In this document: positions 3,428 to 60,115 of the stretch, piece after piece | Layout of the letters: every line of letters starts with the position of its first letter | Numbering within the stretch: the stretch's first letter is position 1 | Made by a program: the position numbers and the translations under genes | Notes under the pieces: model-generated | The model's input: the letters and a program-made list of their open reading frames with translations, nothing else | Database searches by the model: none | Told to the model about the DNA's origin: nothing | Assembly (NCBI GenBank): GCA_016432365.1 | Contig: CP066686.1 | Coordinates: 273,771-337,770 of the forward strand | Length of the DNA: 64,000 bases | Origin: Candidatus Woesebacteria bacterium | GTDB lineage: Bacteria; Patescibacteriota; Microgenomatia; UBA8517 | Direction: 5' to 3'

Positions 3428-4884
3428 TCACAGGCTTTAAGTGCGCTAATTGAGATATAGCTAATATTTTCCGGTTTATAGTATCGTTTTTCTTCCACAA
3501 AGAACTTATCCAGCCCCGCCAAGTTTCCATCTCGGGCAACAAAATAGACAGGAATAGGGCTTGTTAGACAACTCAGGTTTAATACAGATCGGTCGAGATT
3601 TCTCGAGTCGATGTAAGTGGGCTTTACCCAGGCCGAATTATTAAAATATGCAAATACCGCGCTTTCGGGGTTACCTGCATCAATCCGGACCCCGGCAATT
3701 ATTTTTTTATCTTTCCCTTTTTGATTCAAATAATCAACCACCTCCGGAATGCCGTAGCCCGATGTCCACCCGGTTAGATATTCGGATTTTTGTGAAAATA
3801 CTGTCATCTTGTCCATGACATTGAAATATGTAATAGGGGAAATAACTAGGAGGTAGGTAATCATGATCGTGGGTATTGTCGAAACACTTCCAATCAAAAT
3901 CGCATGTGCTTTCCTAAAGTTAAAAAGGGTGTATGCGCAAAAGACGGAGATAAGTGGAAAAAAGGCGGATAAATATCTAGGGTTAAGCGACTTGCCCGAA
4001 AATAAGACAAGGATAAAACCTGTCAAAAAAAAGGTTGGGAGAATTCTATCCTTTCTCTTTAATAAAAAATATATTCCACAAATTGACAATATAAAAACAA
4101 AAGGGGTTAAATAAAAAAAAGATATATTGACGGCAGTTGAAAAATTTCTTATCCACAAAGAAAACGGAAAACTTAACAGTTCTGGAATAGATAGCATAAA
4201 CCGGTTATTGGTGTTCAATGAGGTCCAGAATATTTTTTGAAAAAAAAGTGGGGAGACGATAATCAGACTGGAAATAGCAGACAAGGCGAATTCTTTAAAA
4301 TGTTTTTTGTAAATCAAAATTAAACTCACCGAAATTAAAAAAACAAATGCTGAAAGTTTTATAAAGATACCTATACCCAAGATGAGTCCAAGACAAACCG
4401 CGTATTTAGTTTTTTTGGTTTCAAGTATTCTTAGTAGAAAATAAAAACTCCAGATGCCACACCCGGCGATTGCCGATTCCATTAATGCTTGGCGATCAAA
4501 AAAGGCGAAAAGAGGAACAATAATGTAAACAATCGAAGATAAACGCGCAAGCCTTTCATCTCCTAAGTTTTTCGCGATTTTATAAATTCCGGCCAATGTT
4601 AAAAATCCAAACATAACGGATACAATCCTGCCCGCCAAAAGAGGCGAATTAAAAATGTTTTCAAATACTCCAAAAATCCAAATAAGGAGTGGAGGCTTGG
4701 CATCATATAGCGAATAAAATAATCCAGCACTGGTATAGAGAGATTTCCATCCCCAATCCAAATAAATTGCTTCGTCGTTAAAAATTGGGAGTTTGGTTAA
4801 GTTAACTATTCTCGACAAAAAATATATTACGGAAAGCGTAGCTAAGGAATGATTGTGAATAAACTGTGTGATTGTTTTTTTCAT
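3424..4884 (-). CDS. GT-C glycosyltransferase family 39 (ArnT/PMT-like) membrane protein
   Basis: Polytopic membrane protein with an N-terminal DEaiY-type loop (FNDEAIYLDWGW) typical of ArnT/PMT-family glycosyltransferases. Confidence 0.7.
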   Translation of the reverse strand: MKKTITQFIHNHSLATLSVIYFLSRIVNLTKLPIFNDEAIYLDWGWKSLYTSAGLFYSLYDAKPPLLIWIFGVFENIFNSPLLAGRIVSVMFGFLTLAGIYKIAKNLGDERLARLSSIVYIIVPLFAFFDRQALMESAIAGCGIWSFYFLLRILETKKTKYAVCLGLILGIGIFIKLSAFVFLISVSLILIYKKHFKEFALSAISSLIIVSPLFFQKIFWTSLNTNNRFMLSIPELLSFPFSLWIRNFSTAVNISFFYLTPFVFILSICGIYFLLKRKDRILPTFFLTGFILVLFSGKSLNPRYLSAFFPLISVFCAYTLFNFRKAHAILIGSVSTIPTIMITYLLVISPITYFNVMDKMTVFSQKSEYLTGWTSGYGIPEVVDYLNQKGKDKKIIAGVRIDAGNPESAVFAYFNNSAWVKPTYIDSRNLDRSVLNLSCLTSPIPVYFVARDGNLAGLDKFFVEEKRYYKPENISYISISALKACD

Positions 4885-4956
4885 TGAGTAATTTTAACAG
4901 GTTTTAAAAAGCACCTATCTCCTGTTGAGGTTTAGCTTCCGTTCGTTATACAATGA

Positions 4957-7083
4957 TTGGCGATGATAAAAAAGCACAAAAGAAGAATAGATAAACGCGG
5001 TTTCAAATTAAAGATTAAGAGGGACACCTCTTTTTCTATCGCCAAAATTTTCTTTTTTGCACTGGCCGCATTAGTTCTTCTTTCTTTTTCTCGGCAGGGG
5101 GCGATACTACTCAAGTTTAACGATCTTCTTGTAGCTTATTTTTCCTGGTCATCATTTTTTTTACCATTTCTCTTTTTGGCTTTTGCATTTTTGATGTCTA
5201 GGGCCAAGTTTCCTATGGCTCAACCGAATGTTATTGTTGGTGGAATCCTTTTCTTTATTTCCATTGTGACTTTGACCAGAGCTGGGATTTTGGGAAATTC
5301 TGCATGGGATGGAATGAGCGCCTTAATTACAGGAATAGGTGCGGCGATTGTATTAATTGGGACCAGTTTTGTCGGTTTGATAGTCCTTTTTAATACTTCA
5401 ATTGACCAGGTTTTTAAATACGTCGCCGGACTACTTGTGCAGGTCGGGGGTTTTATCAAAAGCCCGGCTCCTATTAAAATTGGTGGCATACAGATGAGTA
5501 AAGGGCCAATGAAAGTTTCCGGTGGGGGTAACTTCAAACAACAGGTAAATATAAATCAAGCAAAACTCCCGATATCGGTAGCTGATAATAAACCCAAAGA
5601 GCCATTGGAGCAGAAACTTGTAAGCAATATTCCCGGCGAAGAAAAAATATGGAAATATCCAAGCTTTGATCTATTGAGTGATGCTGGGATAGGAAAGGCA
5701 GACAGAGGAGATATAAAAGGCAACGCGGCAGTCATCGAAAAAACACTTGAATCTTTTGGGATTACCGCAAGGGTGGTTGAGGTGAATCTTGGTCCGGCGG
5801 TGACTCAGTATGCAATTGAGGTTGCACTCGGTACAAAACTCTCCAAGATTACATCTTTGGAAAGGGATTTGGCTTTGGCTTTGGCAGCCCCAACCGGTAC
5901 AATTAGAATTGAAGCCCCGATCCCAGGAAGATCTTTGGTTGGTATCGAACTGCCAAATAGAGCAGCCGAATTCGTAACACTTAAGAGAATGATGGAGTCG
6001 GACGAGATGCTGGCGGCAAGATCAAAATTGGCGGTATCTTTAGGGTTTGATGTTTCAGGTAAACCCGTTGTCGCCGATATCGCCAGAATGCCCCATGTAC
6101 TTATCGCAGGACAAACCGGAAGCGGTAAATCGGTTTGTATTAACGCCTTTCTTGCATCTATCCTTTTTAGGGCAGCTCCAACCGAAGTAAAACTAATTTT
6201 AGTCGATCCCAAACGAGTTGAGCTAACGGGTTATAACGGTATTCCGCATCTACTTTCTCCCGTTATTGTAGAACCGGAAAAGGTAATATCTGCTCTCAGG
6301 TGGGTTATGGCCGAAATGGATAGAAGATATAAACTTTTTGCAGAAGCCGGGGCTAGGAATATTGACGGTTACAACGAAATGAGCGGGTTTCAAGCCCTGC
6401 CCTTTATTGTTCTTTTTATCGATGAACTTGCTGATATTATGCTTTTCTCTCCTGTTGAAGTCGAAGATGCAATTACTAGGATTGCGCAAATGTCACGAGC
6501 TACAGGAATTCATATGGTTTTGGCCACTCAAAGGCCATCGGTAGATGTCATTACGGGTTTAATTAAAGCTAACGTTCCTTCCCGTATCGCTTTTGCCGTC
6601 GCCTCTCAGGTCGATTCTCGCGTTATTCTTGACACACAAGGAGCAGAGAAACTGCTGGGTAAAGGAGATATGTTATATCTTCCACCCGAACAGGCAAAAC
6701 CACTTAGAATTCAAGGCGCGTTTGTCAACGATAAAGAAATTGAGGCGTTGGTGGCTTTCGTTAAAAACCAGGGAATTCCAACTCAATATACTGACGAAGT
6801 GACAACTATGAGCAAGGCCGGATCAGTTTCGGTTCCGGGGGTCGAAGGTGATACAGACAATTTGTTTAAGGAAGCGGTTAAGGTTGTTTGTCAGTACGAT
6901 AGAGCTTCGGCATCACTTTTGCAAAGAAGGCTGTCAATTGGTTATGCGAGAGCTGCCAGAATTGTAGATCAACTTGAGGCGGCGGGGGTTATCTCTACTT
7001 CAGATGGAAGTAGCAAGCCCAGGGAAGTGCTGGTCCAAAATGCAGATGAGTTTCTTGCCTCGTTTGGGGGTGGCGGTCAATGA
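4957..7083 (+). CDS. ftsK: DNA translocase FtsK/SpoIIIE
   Basis: N-terminal TM segments, Walker A GQTGSGKS, ATQRPS motif and a C-terminal gamma-like domain. Confidence 0.9.
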   Translation: MAMIKKHKRRIDKRGFKLKIKRDTSFSIAKIFFFALAALVLLSFSRQGAILLKFNDLLVAYFSWSSFFLPFLFLAFAFLMSRAKFPMAQPNVIVGGILFFISIVTLTRAGILGNSAWDGMSALITGIGAAIVLIGTSFVGLIVLFNTSIDQVFKYVAGLLVQVGGFIKSPAPIKIGGIQMSKGPMKVSGGGNFKQQVNINQAKLPISVADNKPKEPLEQKLVSNIPGEEKIWKYPSFDLLSDAGIGKADRGDIKGNAAVIEKTLESFGITARVVEVNLGPAVTQYAIEVALGTKLSKITSLERDLALALAAPTGTIRIEAPIPGRSLVGIELPNRAAEFVTLKRMMESDEMLAARSKLAVSLGFDVSGKPVVADIARMPHVLIAGQTGSGKSVCINAFLASILFRAAPTEVKLILVDPKRVELTGYNGIPHLLSPVIVEPEKVISALRWVMAEMDRRYKLFAEAGARNIDGYNEMSGFQALPFIVLFIDELADIMLFSPVEVEDAITRIAQMSRATGIHMVLATQRPSVDVITGLIKANVPSRIAFAVASQVDSRVILDTQGAEKLLGKGDMLYLPPEQAKPLRIQGAFVNDKEIEALVAFVKNQGIPTQYTDEVTTMSKAGSVSVPGVEGDTDNLFKEAVKVVCQYDRASASLLQRRLSIGYARAARIVDQLEAAGVISTSDGSSKPREVLVQNADEFLASFGGGGQ

Positions 7084-24290: not shown

Positions 24291-24812
24291 ATGCCTGAAC
24301 AACAGGAATTTGGACCTGACACATTCGAAGTTTATACAGAAAAAACTCTTCAAAAACTATCTTCGTTTAATTTTAAAGATTTAACCAGATATTTAAACAC
24401 AGATAAAATAGGATCGTATTCATTCAATATACCCACGGATAAGGCGGAGAATGAAAAGTTAACGGATTTTGTTACAACGGTTTTGGAATTATCGAGACTC
24501 GCAGGCATTAAGGAGAACGGTGTGGCTAGAAAAGACGTTGAAGACGTATTGGAAAAAGTTAAAAAAGGTGATTTTTTGTTACTGAAAAGTCACGCCTCAG
24601 AGGAAGGTGCTATTGTAGATGTCTGCCTCTCACTGGCAAGAGACAAAAAAACACCTCAAGGGAGAATCCCCCTTCCGTTTACAGGTGGAAACCTTGGTAT
24701 TTGGGTAAACGCTAACAAAAGCATTTCTTTTACAGGAAATAGACGTTATGATCATGCTGCGATCATGCTTACAAGTGTTTCAAAAAAAATGAATCTCAAG
24801 ATTTCTGATTGA
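24291..24812 (+). CDS. hypothetical protein inserted between rpsG and fusA
   Basis: Only long ORF in a 640-nt gap of the otherwise conserved str operon. Native-like composition, no motif. Confidence 0.5.
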   Translation: MPEQQEFGPDTFEVYTEKTLQKLSSFNFKDLTRYLNTDKIGSYSFNIPTDKAENEKLTDFVTTVLELSRLAGIKENGVARKDVEDVLEKVKKGDFLLLKSHASEEGAIVDVCLSLARDKKTPQGRIPLPFTGGNLGIWVNANKSISFTGNRRYDHAAIMLTSVSKKMNLKISD

Positions 24813-24915: not shown

Positions 24916-27084
24916 ATGGCTGAGGTTGCAAAGAAAAAAGCGGCGATAGTAACAACTGCGACAAAAGATCGCAATGTTTCCTATGAGAAAATCAGAAATA
25001 TCGGTATTATTGCCCATATCGATGCCGGTAAAACCACGACAACAGAAAGACTCCTATTCGAAACAGGCAGAACTTACAAACAAGGTTCGGTTGATGACGG
25101 TACAACAGTCACAGACTGGATGGCTCAGGAACGTGAGCGTGGAATCACTATTGTCTCTGCCGCAATTACCGCTTTTTGGGATCTCAAAACTGCCTCTTCC
25201 GTCGAAGCTGGTCATTATCGTATCAATTTAATTGATACACCCGGCCACATTGATTTTACCGCAGAAGTTGAACGATCTCTCCGTGTTTTGGACGGCGCTC
25301 TTATGGTCTTTGACGGTAGAACAGGGGTCGAATCTCAATCCGAAACAGTTTGGAGACAAGCTGACAAATACAACGTACCCAGAATTTGTGTTTTAAATAA
25401 ATTGAATTTGATCGGGGCGGACTTTGAGGCTTCAATAAAATCTATCAGGGAAAGACTTAAGGCCAATGCTTCTCCCGTAACCATTCCAATAGGGCAGGAA
25501 CATGAACATAGAGGTGTAGTAAACCTGATTTCGATGAAGGCCCTTACTTATAAGGCGGTTGAGGATCACGCACTAACCGAAGAAGAAATTCCGGCGGAAC
25601 TATTGGATATGGCTAAAAAATATAGGGGTGAGCTCATAGAAAAAGTTTCTGAATTTGACGACGAGGCTTTGAATCTGTTCTTGGAAGGCAAAGAACCTGA
25701 TGAGAATATTCTCAAAAGAGCCATCAGAAAAGGTGTAATTTCCGGAAAGTTCTTCCCGGTTTTTGGAGGGGACAATAGGACCGCCGAGAGCCAACTTCTA
25801 CTTAATGGTGTAGTTGAATATCTTCCTTCTCCAATCGACCTTCCGCCCGTTGCCGGAACAAACCCCAAAACAGGTGAAGAAGAAAAGAGAGAAAGAAGAA
25901 ACGAAGCTCCGATGAGCGCTTTGGCATTCAAAGTTATGACCGACCCACACGTGGGTCGCCTTGTCTACATGAGGGTTTATTCAGGTTCAATCAAGTCGGG
26001 ACAGGAGGTTTACAATTCCACAAAACAGAAATACGAGAGAATTGGTAAGTTGGTTCTACTTCACGCCGATCAACGTGAGCTTATTGAAGAAGCGTTTGCA
26101 GGAGAAATTGTGGCTGTGGTAGGTGTGAAAGAAACCTCTACTGGGGACACGGTTTGTGATTCAGCCCATCCAATAGTACTTGAGTCAATTAGCTTTCCCG
26201 AGCCTGTTATTTCGTTGGCAATTGAGCCTGCTACCAAGAGCGACCAGGAAAAGATGGGCAATGCCCTAAGTAAACTTTCGGACGAAGATCCAACATTCAG
26301 AATTAAATCGAATCCCGAAACCGGACAAACCATTATTTCAGGAATGGGAGAGTTGCAGCTGGAAGTGCTTGTAGACCGTATGAAGCGCGAATTTAACGTT
26401 GTTGCAACCACGGGTGCACCTCAGGTGGCGTATAAAGAAACAATCAAGAAAATAGGCGAGGGTGAAGGTAAATATATCAGGCAAACCGGAGGCCGTGGAC
26501 AATACGGACACTGTTTACTTAGACTTGAGCCTCTTGGCCGCGGGGAAGGATTTGAATTTAAGAGTGAAATAAAAGGAGGCGCAATTCCATTGGAATATAT
26601 AGGCCCGATCGAAAAAGGTGTCAAAGAAAAGATGGAAAATGGAGTTATGGCAGGTTTCCCCATGGTGGACATGAGGGTAGTAGTATTTGACGGAAGTTTC
26701 CACGACGTAGATTCTTCAGAAATGTCGTTTAAGATTGCGGGTTCAATGGCCTTGGAAGACGCTTTTAAGCATTCTGATCCCGCTCTTCTTGAGCCTATCA
26801 TGAAAATTGAAGTCTTTACCCCGGGAGAATATATGGGAGACGTTATAGGAGATCTTTCGTCAAAACGTGCTCAAATATCAGGAAGCGAAGAAAAGGCGGG
26901 CGAAACTGTAATTTACGGTGTTGTTCCTCTTTCGGAGCTTTCCGGTTATGCCACGAAACTAAGGTCCCTTACCCAAGGCCGTGCCAGGGCTTATGTTGAG
27001 CCTTCCCACTACGACGAAGTCCCAAGTCACATTACAGCTCAGATTGTAGCTAAAGCAGGCAAGGTGGTAATGGCAAGAGGGTAA
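24916..27084 (+). CDS. fusA: elongation factor G
   Basis: G-domain AHIDAGKTT, DTPGHIDF, NKLD. Confidence 0.95.
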   Translation: MAEVAKKKAAIVTTATKDRNVSYEKIRNIGIIAHIDAGKTTTTERLLFETGRTYKQGSVDDGTTVTDWMAQERERGITIVSAAITAFWDLKTASSVEAGHYRINLIDTPGHIDFTAEVERSLRVLDGALMVFDGRTGVESQSETVWRQADKYNVPRICVLNKLNLIGADFEASIKSIRERLKANASPVTIPIGQEHEHRGVVNLISMKALTYKAVEDHALTEEEIPAELLDMAKKYRGELIEKVSEFDDEALNLFLEGKEPDENILKRAIRKGVISGKFFPVFGGDNRTAESQLLLNGVVEYLPSPIDLPPVAGTNPKTGEEEKRERRNEAPMSALAFKVMTDPHVGRLVYMRVYSGSIKSGQEVYNSTKQKYERIGKLVLLHADQRELIEEAFAGEIVAVVGVKETSTGDTVCDSAHPIVLESISFPEPVISLAIEPATKSDQEKMGNALSKLSDEDPTFRIKSNPETGQTIISGMGELQLEVLVDRMKREFNVVATTGAPQVAYKETIKKIGEGEGKYIRQTGGRGQYGHCLLRLEPLGRGEGFEFKSEIKGGAIPLEYIGPIEKGVKEKMENGVMAGFPMVDMRVVVFDGSFHDVDSSEMSFKIAGSMALEDAFKHSDPALLEPIMKIEVFTPGEYMGDVIGDLSSKRAQISGSEEKAGETVIYGVVPLSELSGYATKLRSLTQGRARAYVEPSHYDEVPSHITAQIVAKAGKVVMARG

Positions 27085-27193: not shown

Positions 27194-28384
27194 ATGGCAG
27201 ACGCAAAACAACATTACGACAGAAGTAAACCACATGTAAATATTGGTACCATTGGTCATGTTGACCACGGTAAAACCACACTTACCTCAGCCATTACCAT
27301 GGTTCTTGCCAAGCAAGGTTTAGCCAAGGCTAAGAAATATGAAGATATTGATTCAGCTCCCGAGGAAAGAGAGCGTGGAGTCACTATCAATCTTTCTCAT
27401 CAGGAATACGAAACAGCAAAAAGGCACTATGCCCACATCGATGCTCCAGGCCATGCTGACTATATTAAGAACATGATTACCGGTGCTGCTCAAATGGACG
27501 GTGCTATTTTGGTAGTCTCAGCAGCGGACGGTCCTATGCCTCAGACAAGAGAGCATGTAATTTTGGCCAGACAGGTTAATGTTCCTGCACTTGTAGTATT
27601 CCTTAACAAGTGCGATACGGTCGATGATCCTGAAATCATTGATTTGGTTGAAGCAGATGTGCGTGAACTCCTTAAGAAATATGAATATCCAGGAGATGAG
27701 GTCCCTGTAATTCGTGGAAGCGCTCTTAAGGCTACAGAGGGTGACGCTGAAGCAGAAAAGAAGATTGTCGAACTTATGGATGCGGTTGATAACTATATTC
27801 CTGATCCTGTTCGTCAGACCGACAAGCCTTTTCTTATGCCTGTCGAGGACGTATTTACGATCTCTGGACGTGGAACAGTTGTTACAGGACGTGTTGAGCG
27901 CGGAATTATTAAAGTTAACGAGGAAATCGAAATAGTTGGGCTCAAAGATACTCAAAAATCGGTTGTAACAGGTCTTGAAATGTTCAGAAAGACACTTGAT
28001 GATGCCCAAGCCGGAGACAATGTTGGAATACTTCTTCGCGGAGTTGAAAAAGATCAGGTCGAGCGCGGTCAGGTTCTTGCAAAATCAGGGAGTGTTACAC
28101 CTCACACCGAATTTGATGCAGAAGTTTACATTCTTTCCAAAGAAGAGGGTGGACGCCATACACCATTCTTTACAGGCTACAAACCTCAGTTCTACATTCG
28201 TACAGCGGATGTTACGGGTGAGGCCACTCTTCCGGAAGGAATCGAAATGGTTATGCCTGGAGATAACGCCAAAATGCACGTCAAACTTATACAGCCGGTA
28301 GCCTTGGAAGATGGTCTTAGATTCGCAATTCGTGAAGGTGGCCACACAGTTGGTGCCGGAGTTATAACAAAAGTAACAGTTTAG
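27194..28384 (+). CDS. tuf: elongation factor Tu
   Basis: [22 protein letters not shown]. Confidence 0.95.
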
Positions 28385-28400
28385 TTTGTAGCACATTCGT

Positions 28401-28709
28401 ATGGCAACAGGAAGACTAAGGGTAAAACTCAAAAGTTATGACCACAGGGTCTTAGATGAGGCGGCTTCAAAGATAATTGATACCGCTTTAGCTACTGGTG
28501 CCAAAATTGTAGGTCCAATTCCTCTCCCCACAGACCGCTCCATGATGGCCATTAAAGAGTCTCCTTTTACTGATAAAGATGCTCAAGAGCACTATGAAGT
28601 TTTAACCCACAAACGATTAATCGATATAATTGACCCATCCCCGCGTACGGTTGATTCCCTAGGGAATCTGGATCTCCCTGCAGGCGTAAGTATCGAAATC
28701 AAAATGTAA
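28401..28709 (+). CDS. rpsJ: 30S ribosomal protein S10
   Basis: Typical S10 ([10 protein letters not shown]..). Confidence 0.9.
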
Positions 28710-28720
28710 GCCCCATAGTC

Positions 28721-28749
28721 TTGACTCTTGGCCTCATTTGTGTTATCAT
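28721..28749 (+). promoter_or_regulatory. promoter TTGACT-17-TATCAT of inserted mini-gene
   Basis: Seen directly. Precedes an SD-ATG at 28795. Confidence 0.4.
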
Positions 28750-28794
28750 TCCCCAACTTACATTCTGTAAGAATCTTGCACTTTGGAGGCATAA

Positions 28795-29094
28795 ATGATT
28801 TCTGTTAAACCTATCAACAATGCGCAATCGTTGGAAGTTAGGAAAAAGAAGTTCGGTCTGGAAATTGAATTGACTGCCATTTTTGGTCTCGGTATCACGA
28901 CCAAGGCGAAAATTTCCACGAGAGATTTGAAAGCCAGCCTTGAACAGCCGATTGGCGAACATCGTGATTTCGACGGATCTCTAAGGCGAGTGGTTCGGAC
29001 CGGTTTCAATCACACCCATCTTTTTTTCAAACCGAACAGCAATAACGACCTAGTTGTGGTCGAAACATCGGATCTACTGATCGCAATAAGTTAA
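28795..29094 (+). CDS. hypothetical 99-aa protein (autonomous inserted gene)
   Basis: GGAGG SD 7 nt upstream of the ATG, with its own promoter and intrinsic terminator. Locally about 48% GC. Confidence 0.55.
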
Positions 29095-29117
29095 GCATCA
29101 TTGAAATACAAGTCAGT

Positions 29118-29158
29118 AGCCCTGAACAATCAGCAATACGTTCAGGGCTATTTTTTTG
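29118..29158 (+). terminator. Rho-independent terminator (10-bp stem AGCCCTGAAC/GTTCAGGGCT plus T7)
   Basis: Perfect inverted repeat followed by ATTTTTTTG. Confidence 0.65.
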
Positions 29159-29199
29159 TCCTTCGACTTCGCTCAGGATCTTCGAGTCATCGAGCCTGA

Positions 29200-29228
29200 T
29201 TGACGTTCGTCTCAGGATGATATATAAT
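29200..29228 (+). promoter_or_regulatory. promoter TTGACG-17-TATAAT for rplC and downstream S10-operon genes, followed by a roughly 160-nt structured leader
   Basis: Seen directly. The leader contains GCGCC-TTCGG-AGGCGC tetraloop hairpins. Confidence 0.45.
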
Positions 29229-29394
29229 TCCCCTCATGACATCCTCATCGGATGAATAGATAGTCTTCGTAAGATGCCTTCGGGCGCCTTCGGAGGCGCT
29301 CGTTTAATGACGGTTGGAATCACCAGCTGGTTTCAGAACATATGATAAGTGAACTTCGCTTTAAGCGTAAGCCCGCCTTGTCATTCGCAGACTC

Positions 29395-30189
29395 ATGATT
29401 AATACAATTTTAGGTTCAAAAGGAGTAAATTCTCAAACCTTTATACAAGGGTTCAGAATTCCCGTTACAAAGGTAACAGCGGGTCCTTGTGTCGTGACTC
29501 AAATTAAAAAAACCGATAAGGACGGCTATTGGGCAATTCAACTCGGCTTTTCAGCCAAATCCGGCAAAAATACTTCAAAATCACTTCAAGGTCACCTCAA
29601 AGAAAGTCAAAAGTCAGAAGTCAAAAGTCAAAATTTTCCAAGATATCTCAGAGAAGTTAGAGTAGACAGCGAGCCGGAATATAAAGTCGGGGACACAGTA
29701 AACGCCTCCGACATTTTTCATCCCGGGGATATTGTTTCCGTCATGGGTGTAAGTAAAGGCAAAGGCTTTGCTGGAGTAGTTAAGAGGCATGGTTTCCGCG
29801 GTGGCCCAAGAACTCACGGTCAATCTGATCGCGAACGCGCTCCCGGATCAATCGGTCAAACTACAACTCCGGGAAGAGTTTACAGGGGTAAAAGAATGGC
29901 GGGGAGAATGGGGGGAGAGCAAGTAACAGTAGAAAATCTTCATATAATTAGTATAAATGCAGAAAAAAACGAGCTGGAAGTTTCAGGACAAATTCCGGGA
30001 ACAGTTGGCTCTCTGGTTACAATAAACAAGATCAAATCAGGAAGCCTTAAAGAACTTGAACACGAAGTAGTGGCGCAAATGGTAGAGGGTGAAGGAGCAG
30101 CGGAAGAATCAAAAACAGGAGATGATAAGGCCGAATCCGCCCCAGCCCAGCCGACAGCTTCGGCACCCGAAGGAGGAGCTAAAGAATAA
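29395..30189 (+). CDS. rplC: 50S ribosomal protein L3
   Basis: Typical L3 blocks. Contains a KESQKSEVKSQNF insertion and an acidic C-terminal tail. Confidence 0.9.
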   Translation: MINTILGSKGVNSQTFIQGFRIPVTKVTAGPCVVTQIKKTDKDGYWAIQLGFSAKSGKNTSKSLQGHLKESQKSEVKSQNFPRYLREVRVDSEPEYKVGDTVNASDIFHPGDIVSVMGVSKGKGFAGVVKRHGFRGGPRTHGQSDRERAPGSIGQTTTPGRVYRGKRMAGRMGGEQVTVENLHIISINAEKNELEVSGQIPGTVGSLVTINKIKSGSLKELEHEVVAQMVEGEGAAEESKTGDDKAESAPAQPTASAPEGGAKE

Positions 30190-38178: not shown

Positions 38179-38862
38179 TTACTTGTTGGAAATGGCGATG
38201 TTGTTGCCGAAAACTTTCTTGAAAGCTTCAACAACGTTGTCTACAATCGACATGTGATTGTCGTCGAGTTCAGTCCAACTGAAGGCGTTTGCAATCTCGA
38301 CGCGCGCCTCGTAAGGCTGTATTGAAACTTGTGTGACGCCCGGGATCTGCATAACGATGCGGACAAATTCTCCGCCGCCATCAATGCCGACCTTGCGTAG
38401 ATACTCAAGGCTGGAAATCCGAAGTGGACGCTGGAAAGTCTCATAGCGTGTATTCGAGATTTCAAAGTTGGTGGCGAAACCCCGAAGCCGATCGTTTGGA
38501 TAAGTCTCAATGACAAGTCTTTTCCGGGGATGTAGCTCGTCATACCTTGCTTGAAATGCCTTTTTGACAATCTGGTCGATCTTTTCGTTCCAGAGCGTTC
38601 GACGTCCGAAGGAATCTTTCTCCTTCAGGTAGATCGCAACTTCATATGGTTCAACAAAAATATGGTCAACCCCATCGATCTGGCGCAGTTCCTGAACCAT
38701 CTCGGCTACGATACGGTCATGGTCGCGAAGAGCTTCGAGGTGCAAACTTCGAGCCGAACCATGGGACGTATAGAGCGAGATGTTTTGCTTGCCGATTTCC
38801 ACATTAGTTGAGAAAGTTCTCCCCAACGCGTGGTGCACACGAACATTGAATATCAGTTTCAT
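38179..38862 (-). CDS. hypothetical 228-aa protein with internal tandem duplication (two domains of about 110 aa), inserted on the opposite strand between rplO and secY
   Basis: SD GGAGAAAG before MKLIFNV.... Own promoter and terminator. Locally about 48-50% GC. Repeats aligned by eye (IFVEPYEVAIYL / VSIQPYEARVEI and others). Confidence 0.6.
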   Translation of the reverse strand: MKLIFNVRVHHALGRTFSTNVEIGKQNISLYTSHGSARSLHLEALRDHDRIVAEMVQELRQIDGVDHIFVEPYEVAIYLKEKDSFGRRTLWNEKIDQIVKKAFQARYDELHPRKRLVIETYPNDRLRGFATNFEISNTRYETFQRPLRISSLEYLRKVGIDGGGEFVRIVMQIPGVTQVSIQPYEARVEIANAFSWTELDDNHMSIVDNVVEAFKKVFGNNIAISNK

Positions 38863-38945
38863 AATCTTTCTCCGATTTCTCATCATCATCAGAATAGAAT
38901 TTCCGAAGCCAAAACCCGCAATTTCAACGTGCAAAACCGAACCGC

Positions 38946-38974
38946 ATTCTATAACAACCACACATCAAAGTCAA
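38946..38974 (-). promoter_or_regulatory. promoter TTGACT-17-TAGAAT (minus strand) for the inserted 228-aa gene
   Basis: Reverse complement read directly from the sequence. Confidence 0.45.
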
Positions 38975-51885: not shown

Positions 51886-52215
51886 TTAAACCAGCTCAGG
51901 TTTGAAATAGTCGTCGGTGTGTGGAAAAGTGTATCCTGCCCACTCATCGGACGCTGTTTCCAAGGATGCCGAAAATGGCAACCAACCAACTCTTGTGTCG
52001 CCCATCACGATATCCATAACTCTGGACGTTCCCGGGTTGTTGTTTAACCAAAAGGTCAGCCTCATTTCTACCAAAGCCCCTGCCTCGTGGTGTTTTGGAT
52101 CGACCTTTCGCAAGAACCTCATTGGGTCCTCGATGCCTCTTGAAAGAAGCACCCGTACGAAAGCAGCCTGGGCAGCACCAACACTTGCGGTAATCTCTAT
52201 CGCTATCGCTGACAT
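51886..52215 (-). CDS. hypothetical 109-aa protein, GC-rich with SD
   Basis: About 50% GC. AAGAGGAG SD before the ATG. No motif recognised. Confidence 0.45.
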   Translation of the reverse strand: MSAIAIEITASVGAAQAAFVRVLLSRGIEDPMRFLRKVDPKHHEAGALVEMRLTFWLNNNPGTSRVMDIVMGDTRVGWLPFSASLETASDEWAGYTFPHTDDYFKPELV

Positions 52216-59562: not shown

Positions 59563-59781
59563 AAAAAATCCCGCATGTGCGGGATTTTTGTACTCTAGAG
59601 AGTAGTAAGCCATTTTCGCTACGCTCAAATGTCTTGGCTTCTCTCTAGTGCACGATACGAAAAACCCCTCCTTATGGAGGGGTAAATCGTACTCTAGAGA
59701 GTAGTAAGCAAATCTTGCTACTCGTTATCCATAAAAAATCCCACGAAAGTGGGATTTTATATACTCTAGAGAGTAGTAAGC
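59563..59781 (-). repeat. three tandem modules of (rnpB 3'-terminal 21-mer GCTTACTACTCTCTAGAGTAC plus intrinsic-terminator hairpin)
   Basis: The antisense 20-mer TACTCTAGAGAGTAGTAAGC occurs identically at 59591-59610, 59690-59709 and 59762-59781. Each copy is flanked by a hairpin of different sequence that conserves the stem (ATCCCGCA/TGCGGGAT; CCCCTCC/GGAGGGG; ATCCCAC/GTGGGAT) next to a T-run. Confidence 0.7.
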
Positions 59782-60115
59782 CAGGTTCTGTTAGGCCCTG
59801 AACAAATTTCAGGGTTTGACGATCATCCATCTAACGCCCTCGAACTTCGGAACGTGGCTCGATTACTCGAGCCGTTGGTAAAGCTCCTGTAACGTTCCTT
59901 TCGGAGGTTGCAGCGGGGAGGATTGCCTCTTTTCACTCGTTTTTCCCTACCTTTAGGGTAAGAAAATCGACATAGTCTCTGTGGCTCTAACTGGCTACAT
60001 TCCTTGCGGAACATATCCCAGGCTTACGCCTGGCACCCTGCTTTTCTGCTGCCTGGACTTTCCTCCCCTCATAGCCTTGCGGCGACGTGGGGCGATCATC
60101 CTTTCTCTAGAGTGA
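59762..60115 (-). ncRNA. rnpB: RNase P RNA (bacterial type A)
   Basis: The reverse complement carries GAGGGGAGGAAAGUCCAGGC (P4 5' strand, CR-I) and AGCAGGGUGCCAGGCGUAAGCCUGGG (the P10-P12 region). It also has AGGUAGGG.AAAA.GAGUGAAAAG (CR-II-like) and a P18 hairpin followed by ACAGAACCUGGCUUAC (CR-V, P4 3' strand). P1 pairs ACUCUAGAGA with UCUCUAGAGU. Confidence 0.8.

Follow-up and report, generated by a model that had tools for sequence, protein, structure and literature searches.

A probable accessory-gene slot between rpsJ and rplC in Woesebacteria and the 99-residue protein encoded in it

We analysed a 64,000-nucleotide stretch (the window) of the genome of a Candidatus Woesebacteria bacterium, a member of the Candidate Phyla Radiation (CPR), in which the genes for ribosomal proteins S10 (rpsJ) and L3 (rplC) are separated by a 685-bp spacer containing an open reading frame (ORF) of 99 codons, here called ORF99. 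The window was compared with related loci, which carry labels of the form L001. Our results show that ORF99 is a real gene, probably transcribed separately between ribosomal genes that are normally adjacent. We consider it probable, though well short of certain, that the spacer represents one of several fillings of an accessory-gene slot at a pre-existing boundary between transcription units in a clade of Woesebacteria. The S10 cluster is among the most conserved gene orders of prokaryotes, and a recurrent landing place for accessory genes that cuts it at rpsJ/rplC would mean that remodelling is possible even here in small CPR genomes. The locus also yields an uncharacterised family of proteins of about 100 residues whose predicted structure is a minimal PC4/Whirly fold, a candidate ribosomal-protein leader (attenuator) that precedes rplC and has no counterpart in Rfam, and a promoter motif, CCCATA-N-TTGACT, that appears specific to ORFan accessory genes. 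No paradigm is overturned by these results, and the function of ORF99 is inferred.

The interval between rpsJ and rplC

The genes at this locus run fusA, tuf, rpsJ, ORF99, rplC and then rplD (Table 1). The start of rpsJ lies only 16 nt past the end of tuf, and the two are therefore probably co-transcribed. In most bacteria sampled with an S10 probe the gap between rpsJ and rplC is 30-100 bp; in the nearest relatives in the species-representative collection it is 682-2076 bp and contains differing genes. The slot encodes a DUF7736 protein in L001, an FtsJ methyltransferase plus others in L002 and L003, an AAA_14/DUF4143 ATPase (PADLOC candidate PDC-S01 at 3e-102) in L007 and a matrixin in L026. 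A finer survey covered relatives with S10 proteins 95-97% identical to that of the window. The interval is empty and 161-182 bp long in seven of them (L090, L091, L094, L095, L097, L102 and L103), while L092, L093 and L096, whose S10 protein sequence is the same as that of the empty L090 type, carry a histidine phosphatase (His_Phos_1) gene and a small ORF in 940 bp (measured in L092; the other contigs end first). Three ORFans occupy 1760 bp in L089, four genes, one of them zeta-toxin-like, occupy 2877 bp in L098-L100 (measured in L098; the other contigs end first), L101 extends for more than 4 kb without reaching rplC, and the partly covered interval of L104 holds a 91-residue ORFan. Despite their otherwise different cargo, L092 (about 4400-4510) and L098 (about 6430-6540) share a homologous small hydrophobic ORF (MAEYY.KGK...LILIY.VVG..VYY.VYYFF) on the minus strand, immediately upstream of the rplC promoter P2.

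In comparative genomics, chromosomal integration hotspots are places where variable accessory genes lie between conserved core genes. With at least eight slot states, the empty one included, among genomes with 95-97% identical S10 proteins, the interval qualifies as such a place. These relatives are not very close to one another, and their L4 and L23 are only 57-60% and 61-67% identical to those of the window. The likeness to known hotspots lies in the same two core genes, the differing content, the empty sites and a cargo rich in ORFans and toxin- or defence-like genes. This slot differs from the usual ones in lying inside the S10/spc ribosomal protein cluster, in having a promoter and a terminator that stay while the ORF changes, and in the lack of an integrase (in a search with one query) or a tRNA gene nearby.

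The empty sites still carry a promoter (TATAAT) and an attenuator-like leader of about 130 nt. This suggests that the operon boundary predates the insert and that, across this clade, rplC is the first gene of a separate transcription unit. An earlier reading of the window, made from the sequence alone (the sequence-only reading), had proposed that the insert splits rpsJ from rplC and that relatives should be compared for contiguity of the two genes. The comparison did reveal close relatives in which they are only 161-182 bp apart, so that the genes are indeed neighbours in the empty state, but since the boundary already existed no operon has been split.

The gene in the spacer has signals of its own. 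Promoter P1 consists of a -35 box TTGACT (28721-28726), a 17-nt spacer and a TG-extended -10 box TATCAT (28744-28749); with 10 of 12 consensus positions plus the TG extension it has the features of a sigma-70-type promoter, and transcription is predicted to start near 28756. The 5' untranslated region (5'UTR) contains a palindrome, CTTACA-TTC-TGTAAG (28757-28771), whose centre is three or four nucleotides long across relatives, and a GGAGG Shine-Dalgarno (SD) sequence (28785-28789) that lies 5 nt ahead of the ATG of ORF99 (28795). Two relatives, L085 and L087, have an ORF99 homologue directly after rpsJ. P1 and the 5'UTR appear to be functional, because the stretch that separates the rpsJ stop codon from the ATG is more conserved between them and the window (84/85 and 71/85 identical positions, respectively) than are the adjoining 117 nt of rpsJ (87% and 76%). 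The 5'UTR was rejected as a stable RNA element (hairpin of -5.8 kcal/mol, z = 0.5), and the palindrome therefore seems more likely to be a candidate DNA or protein-binding site. A pattern scan of metagenome DNA for the rpsJ end plus the P1 motif returned a single chance match, in eukaryote-like DNA (L088).

GGAGG precedes the start in every ORF99 family member with readable upstream sequence, and among some 58 gene starts inspected in the window ORF99 is the only one with GGAGG at working distance, so the earlier claim that its canonical SD is the only one in the ribosomal cluster is essentially right. Many genes of the window have a TATAAT-like box 6-12 nt before the start codon (e.g. at 725, 14919, 27194, 39040, 47692 and 58580), which suggests that leaderless or very short-leader mRNAs are widespread in this host. 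To our knowledge the transcription signals of the host phylum are almost unknown; what emerges here is that accessory genes led by an SD stand out from a genome that is otherwise poor in SDs and apparently leaderless in part.

Downstream of ORF99, the predicted intrinsic terminator T1 has a 13-bp stem (29115-29127 paired with 29140-29152), a 12-nt loop and an unbroken run of seven T (29151-29157) that shares its first two bases with the 3' end of the stem. Its folding energy of -25.1 kcal/mol (z = -7.3 against dinucleotide shuffles) is that of a strong Rho-independent terminator; a generic terminator scan skipped it solely because its loop exceeds 8 nt. Promoter P2, which would serve rplC, has TTGACG (29200-29205), a 17-nt spacer and TATAAT (29223-29228), matches 11 of 12 consensus positions and is likewise of sigma-70 type. 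Its -10 region (GATATATAAT/TGATATAAT) is homologous in L098, L104, L092, L090, L089 and L001-L003; P2 and leader of L098 are 91% identical to the window over 29211-29299, and P2 of L104 is 84% identical. An apparent homology of the 30 nt after T1 to the hairpin that follows the attenuator in relatives (20/25 with L102) lies within the range of shuffled sequences and was dropped.

L104 bears on the ownership of these signals. Here the 3' end of rpsJ (AGT/AAA) is followed by a P1-like CCCATAGTTGGACT...TACTAT, a UTR, GGAGG and a 91-residue ORF that is unrelated to ORF99 (hhalign probability 0.3%), behind which stand a hairpin and T-run 82% identical to T1 and then P2. Both arms of this hairpin carry an insertion, and its pairing is preserved. 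Because L104 has kept these homologues around an unrelated ORF, T1 and P2, and more loosely P1, appear to be properties of the locus rather than of ORF99. The AGT/AAA codon variant of the rpsJ 3' end is common to the window, L085, L098 and L104.

All the sequence elements that the sequence-only reading listed in the spacer are present, and its view of them as a mini-gene is largely right. P1 (TTGACT-17-TATCAT), the GGAGG and the 99-codon ORF are where it placed them, as is P2 (TTGACG-17-TATAAT, 29200-29228) with a leader serving rplC, and the comparison bears out that the gene is genuine and is equipped with a promoter, an SD and a terminator, P1 and SD being kept in L085 and L087. The terminator, given as a 10-bp stem plus T7, does have the T7 but a longer stem, and is stronger than described. 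The composition was misjudged: the insert, said to be GC-rich at about 48%, has 44.5% GC, similar to tuf (44.6%) and rplC (44.3%), in a window of 41.6%, and ORF99 itself has 43.3%. This rules out bulk GC as a sign of foreign origin. The GC content at third codon positions (GC3) is 0.47 in ORF99 and 0.33-0.39 in its neighbours, and the leader has 49% GC; composition is otherwise unremarkable.

We propose that rpsJ would be transcribed with tuf, and rplC-rplD and the following genes from their own promoter P2 through a conserved attenuator leader with a GC hairpin and a U-run, leaving the DNA from the rpsJ stop to P2 free to vary, as would fit its being empty or filled with unrelated genes in relatives. 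In the window the slot would be a monocistronic unit in which the sigma-70-like P1, with the clade-specific CCCATA-TTGACT motif, fires into the conserved 5'UTR of about 40 nt. The GGAGG, exceptional in an almost SD-less genome, would drive translation of a basic protein of 99 residues, T1 would end the transcript and P2 would restart transcription for rplC. The transcript boundaries of this unit are predicted from the signals described above.

The rplC leader and the possible turnover of slot cargo

The relatives' leader, from P2 to the ATG, begins with a hairpin of variable sequence. Then come the invariant box AGUCUUCG and a GC hairpin (GCGCC-loop-GGCGC) with U6-7 and GUUUAAUG behind it; a last hairpin stands ahead of CAAAACAAG-AUG. 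A terminator hairpin with a U-run is found in the leaders of L098, L092, L090, L089, L102, L103 and L001-L003. Pairing is possible between the invariant box and the 3' strand of the GC hairpin, and the longer helix formed in this way is the minimum-free-energy structure in five of six close relatives, with 3 nt between helix and U-run; 93% of its cells are paired, as against about 50% in slid controls. There is too little variation for covariation to speak for this helix; 212 of 500 shuffles match the 93% pairing. The relatives' rplC leader looks like a candidate terminator/antiterminator attenuator.

The window copy has the long leader that the sequence-only reading reported, at 166 nt rather than 160, and folds moderately better than shuffles (z = -2.4). 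It keeps the GC hairpin, the U-run is gone (GGAGGCGCTCGTTTAAT), and some 95 nt of extra 3' sequence follow. About 53 nt of gained sequence contain a putative upstream ORF (uORF) of 18 codons whose stop overlaps the ATG of rplC (ATGA). The start context of this uORF (29331-29350) resembles the end of the relatives' leader plus the start of rplC, as if the 53 nt or so had been inserted just past an older rplC start.

Rfam gave no leader match for the window at gathering score, chance-level matches only for 28380-29500 at E-values up to 10, and none for L090 and L098 at gathering score. The nearest known parallel is the Escherichia coli S10 leader (RF00140), which lies before rpsJ, is confined to Gammaproteobacteria and acts through L4-mediated attenuation and translational control (PMC3616713). 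The likeness is seen in the Woesebacteria relatives, where a structured leader with a terminator hairpin and a U-run stands before the L3/L4 operon and where a competing pairing takes in the terminator's 3' strand. The Woesebacteria leader differs in being upstream of rplC and in its unrelated sequence, which gives no RF00140 match, and the window copy differs further by the lost U-run and the added uORF. An L4 leader candidate upstream of rplC has been described in Archaeoglobi (PMC7247131).

How the cargo comes and goes is suggested by two sets of loci. In L098-L100 the last nine codons of rpsJ (27 nt; 3911-3937 in L098) recur without a mismatch 102 nt past the real stop. This extra end is of the TCC/AAG codon type of other lineages, which points to the import of DNA that already stood behind rpsJ in a donor. 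Such a remnant occurs in L098-L100 only, and none was found in the window spacer. In L081, where the ORF99 homologue lies just upstream of rpmB, its cassette is flanked by two direct repeats of 94 nt with 91% identity, and a third, incomplete one is found a gene further upstream. We favour, as the mechanism of turnover, homologous recombination through the conserved flanks, to which occasional illegitimate events would add cargo.

The motif CCCATA-N1-4-TTGACT occurs three times in the window, where 0.03 occurrences are expected, each time before an ORFan gene. Besides ORF99, these are an ORFan of 260 residues between rplO (L15) and secY, with a CCCATAATCTTGACT...TAGAAT promoter and a terminator-like hairpin and T-run, and one of 109 residues, with a CCCCATAATTATTGACTTTTG...TATACT promoter, a structured 5'UTR of about 95 nt and a GAGGAG SD; neither has a Pfam match. 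The motif also precedes cargo genes in L001, L081, L085, L087 and L089, with a TTGGACT variant in L104, and is absent from the tuf promoter and P2. The 260-residue ORFan is a second accessory gene within the ribosomal protein cluster.

A mobile cassette with its own promoter, integron-like or a small non-autonomous element, that targets the rpsJ 3' end or ribosomal promoters would account for the direct repeats that bracket the L081 cassette and for the second rpsJ end in L098-L100. It would also fit the company that the motif keeps with ORFans at three window loci and in several other genomes, the sharp break in identity at the ATG between the window and L085, and the atypical GC3 of ORF99. 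We nevertheless think it unlikely. Between 28300 and 29700 the window has no flanking direct or inverted repeats, target duplication or attC-type inverted repeats other than the terminator arms, and no conserved attC-like site was seen. A tblastn search with a single tyrosine recombinase query, from L082, gave no hit in the window (best E = 1.2) or at any of the slot-bearing loci, and thus, on this one query, no adjacent intI such as an integron has. Moreover T1 and P2 stay when the cargo differs, so that the flanks look host-owned.

A more specific form of the accessory-slot reading is that the rpsJ/rplC junction is a dedicated expression slot with fixed P1, T1 and P2, in which unrelated small ORFans are swapped cassette-like without a recognisable integrase. 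CCCATA-TTGACT would then mark a genome-wide class or regulon of captured genes, and ORF99 would be one rapidly diversifying, miniature PC4-like cargo. We offer this as a speculation, possible but on the doubtful side.

ORF99, its family and its predicted fold

Just one database entry matches ORF99 exactly, the NCBI protein HYV90_01720 from a contig of 1.08 Mb, and a word-index protein search returned nothing beyond ORF99 itself. When 1.84 billion representative proteins were searched exhaustively with HMMER, nine homologues of 87-115 residues with 35-47% identity came to light; a tenth match, a 546-residue repeat protein, was left out because only a 20-residue stretch aligns. The ten proteins of similar size can be aligned end to end and share the motif I.PTNNA..LEV...LTA.FG...DF...L.RV...LRLFF.P.N.DLVVV...DL.EAL. 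In codon alignments of ten pairs, all ten show identities of 0.45-0.65 at positions 1 and 2 and of 0.24-0.39 at position 3, and such decay of third positions to near random is a signature expected of selection on the protein. Together with the homologues and a confident structural model (see below), this shows that ORF99 is a real gene. Its family is tiny, and members with informative neighbourhoods come from small-genome (CPR-like) contexts.

Neither ORF99 nor any of the ten family members matches Pfam at E-values up to 10, a profile search with the family against PDB sequences gave nothing relevant, and PADLOC gave no match of ORF99 to defence-system models at E-values up to 0.01. The sequence-only reading, which saw no recognisable motif, was right at the level of sequence only: ORF99 belongs to a family and has a known fold, confidently predicted. 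An AlphaFold2 model built from the ten sequences reaches a predicted local distance difference test score (pLDDT) of 95.1 and a predicted template modelling score (pTM) of 0.86. DSSP assigns it strands at residues 2-4, 12-18, 23-29, 35-41, 56-58, 63-69, 73-81 and 84-90 and helices at 42-49 and 91-98, a β4-α, β4-α topology. This is the (ββββα)×2 single-domain topology of the PC4-like/Whirly superfamily; the model also resembles solved members of the superfamily in three dimensions, and Foldseek ranks the same families first. By this model ORF99 has the type I PC4-like/Whirly fold, which is also that of SsgB and is defined as β-β-β-β-α, linker, β-β-β-β-α (PMC7549692). The nearest fold group comprises the plant Whirly proteins (PBF-2/WHY2), trypanosome MRP1/MRP2 and Pur-alpha repeats I-II (PMC7549692). 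ORF99 differs from these in its length (about 100 residues against about 150 in a typical domain) and in its bacterial, CPR-like setting, and it has no profile match to Whirly, PurA, MRP, PC4 or DUF2128, whether in Pfam at E-values up to 10 or in the PDB profile search.

Characterised members of the type I fold mostly bind single-stranded DNA or RNA (PMC7549692), with SsgB as the protein-binding exception (PMC8061694). Seven of the ten ORF99 family members have an isoelectric point (pI) of 9.2-9.95. From the predicted fold and the basic charge we infer that ORF99 is a binder of single-stranded RNA or DNA, perhaps of the conserved promoter/UTR in front of its own gene. A phage origin is unsupported, since the viral structures of BFVD gave only weak SsgA-like matches and matches to uncharacterised phage proteins.

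Several observations weigh against the picture drawn so far. The Foldseek E-values are weak (0.02-0.06), the best fold match, SsgB, acts as an adaptor between proteins and not by binding nucleic acid, two members of the family are acidic, and no conserved surface signature of aromatic or basic residues emerged. The use of the promoters and the terminator is read from consensus and conservation only. The three rpsJ-adjacent copies share just 37-44% of their residues, and the L081 copy, at another locus, has 46%. In L085 the homologue (421-719) has a 1-nt deletion near codon 12, with the conserved N-terminus MIRIKPTNNAQ in another frame and the annotated ORF restarting at a TTG; another SD and ATG follow, with no terminator in that place. 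This contig is metagenomic and only 763 bp long, and the frameshift may be an assembly error. A frameshifted ORF in a relative that keeps the spacer, a case that the sequence-only reading had singled out, thus does occur in L085, but L087 is intact and all pairs carry the coding signature.

Simple vertical inheritance of ORF99 does not account for the finding that the rpsJ-adjacent copies are no closer to one another than to that of L081. The ORF is only about 60% identical to the window in DNA in both L085 and L087 (protein 44% and 37%) behind its highly conserved upstream region, and there may have been strong selection on promoter and UTR combined with fast protein evolution, or a swapping of alleles behind a fixed promoter. 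A non-syntenic homologue, in L082-L084, stands alone with long intergenic flanks between HepT/MNT toxin-antitoxin genes and GIY-YIG, RNHCP, integrase and PIN genes, which looks like an accessory-island setting.

ORF99 could alternatively be a factor specific to this lineage that acts in translation or associates with the ribosome, such as an RNA-binding regulator of the ribosomal protein operon next to it, its place beside ribosomal protein genes serving co-regulation. Four of eight contexts adjoin ribosomal protein genes (rpsJ in the window, L085 and L087, and rpmB in L081), the protein is small, basic and of a predicted RNA- or single-stranded-DNA-binding fold, and the adjacent rplC leader is a conserved structured RNA without an assigned ligand. 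Yet ORF99 is missing from most of the close relatives that keep the leader (L089, L090, L092, L098 and L102), other members lie amid toxin-antitoxin, Fic and integrase genes, the protein has changed faster than L4 or L23 when comparable genomes are set side by side, and the gene has its own promoter and terminator instead of belonging to the operon. We rate this role as improbable, about on a par with the mobile cassette.

The resemblance to SsgB, an FtsZ-recruiting protein of actinomycetes (PDB 3cm1 and 6slc), raises the question of an SsgB-like protein-protein adaptor, for example for FtsZ and cell division. This we find very unlikely. Identity to SsgB is 7-16% (7% to 3cm1), the taxon differs, no Pfam SsgA match appears at E-values up to 10, no division genes adjoin the rpsJ-adjacent copies, and the patchy, accessory-like distribution is unlike that of a division factor. 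As far as we know, SsgA-like proteins are restricted to actinomycetes. The view that ORF99 is no real gene and that the spacer consists of regulatory or non-coding DNA alone, for which one might cite the first word-index search, which returned ORF99 alone, the frameshift in L085 and the zero Pfam matches, is already contradicted by nine full-length homologues, the coding substitution pattern in all pairs, the very confident fold prediction and the conserved SD and start context, and deserves hardly any credence.

Coordinates and other observations

Table 1. Features of the window and of one related locus (L081), with positions, strand and basis or remark.
Feature	Position	Strand	Basis or remark
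fusA	24916-27084		ORF list
tuf	27194-28384		ORF list
rpsJ (S10), left border of slot	28401..28709	+	Pfam Ribosomal_S10, E = 1e-29; ORF list
Promoter P1, CCCCATAG motif (predicted)	28711..28749	+	-35/-10 consensus; same position in L085 and L087
Spacer from -10 box to ATG, including 5'UTR of about 40 nt	28750..28794	+	conserved in L085 and L087
ORF99, 99 residues, pI 9.5	28795..29094	+	homologues, codon decay, confident model
Intrinsic terminator T1 (predicted)	29115..29157	+	fold energy; homologue in L104
Promoter P2 of rplC operon (predicted)	29200..29228	+	consensus; homologous in relatives
rplC leader, 166 nt	29229..29394	+	alignments, folds, pair counts
Hairpin H1 of rplC leader	29240-29254	+	leader alignments and folds
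Conserved box AGTCTTCG of rplC leader	29262-29269	+	leader alignments
GC hairpin of rplC leader	29283-29299	+	attenuator hairpin in relatives; without U-run here
uORF of 18 codons in rplC leader	29342..29398	+	sequence reading, leader alignment; translation putative
rplC (L3), right border of slot, first gene of downstream transcription unit	29395..30189	+	Pfam Ribosomal_L3; tblastn to relatives
ORFan of 260 residues between rplO (L15) and secY	ORF 38179-38961, region to 38983	minus	CCCATA-TTGACT motif
ORFan of 109 residues	ORF 51886-52215, region to 52344	minus	CCCATA-TTGACT motif
Repeat copies in L081, with palindrome CTCCTTGCCAAGGAG	3657-3725, 4762-4891, 5367-5460 (of L081)		before 290-residue ORF, ORF99 homologue and rpmB, respectively

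Three further observations concern neighbouring genes and the rest of the window. The junction between rpsG (S7) and fusA, usually tight, holds an ORF of 173 residues (24291-24812) that has no significant Pfam match. In L098 a YecM-family gene lies at the fusA/tuf junction. A bacterial RNase P RNA of class A is found on the minus strand at 59761-60111, with 105.9 bits against a gathering score of 100.

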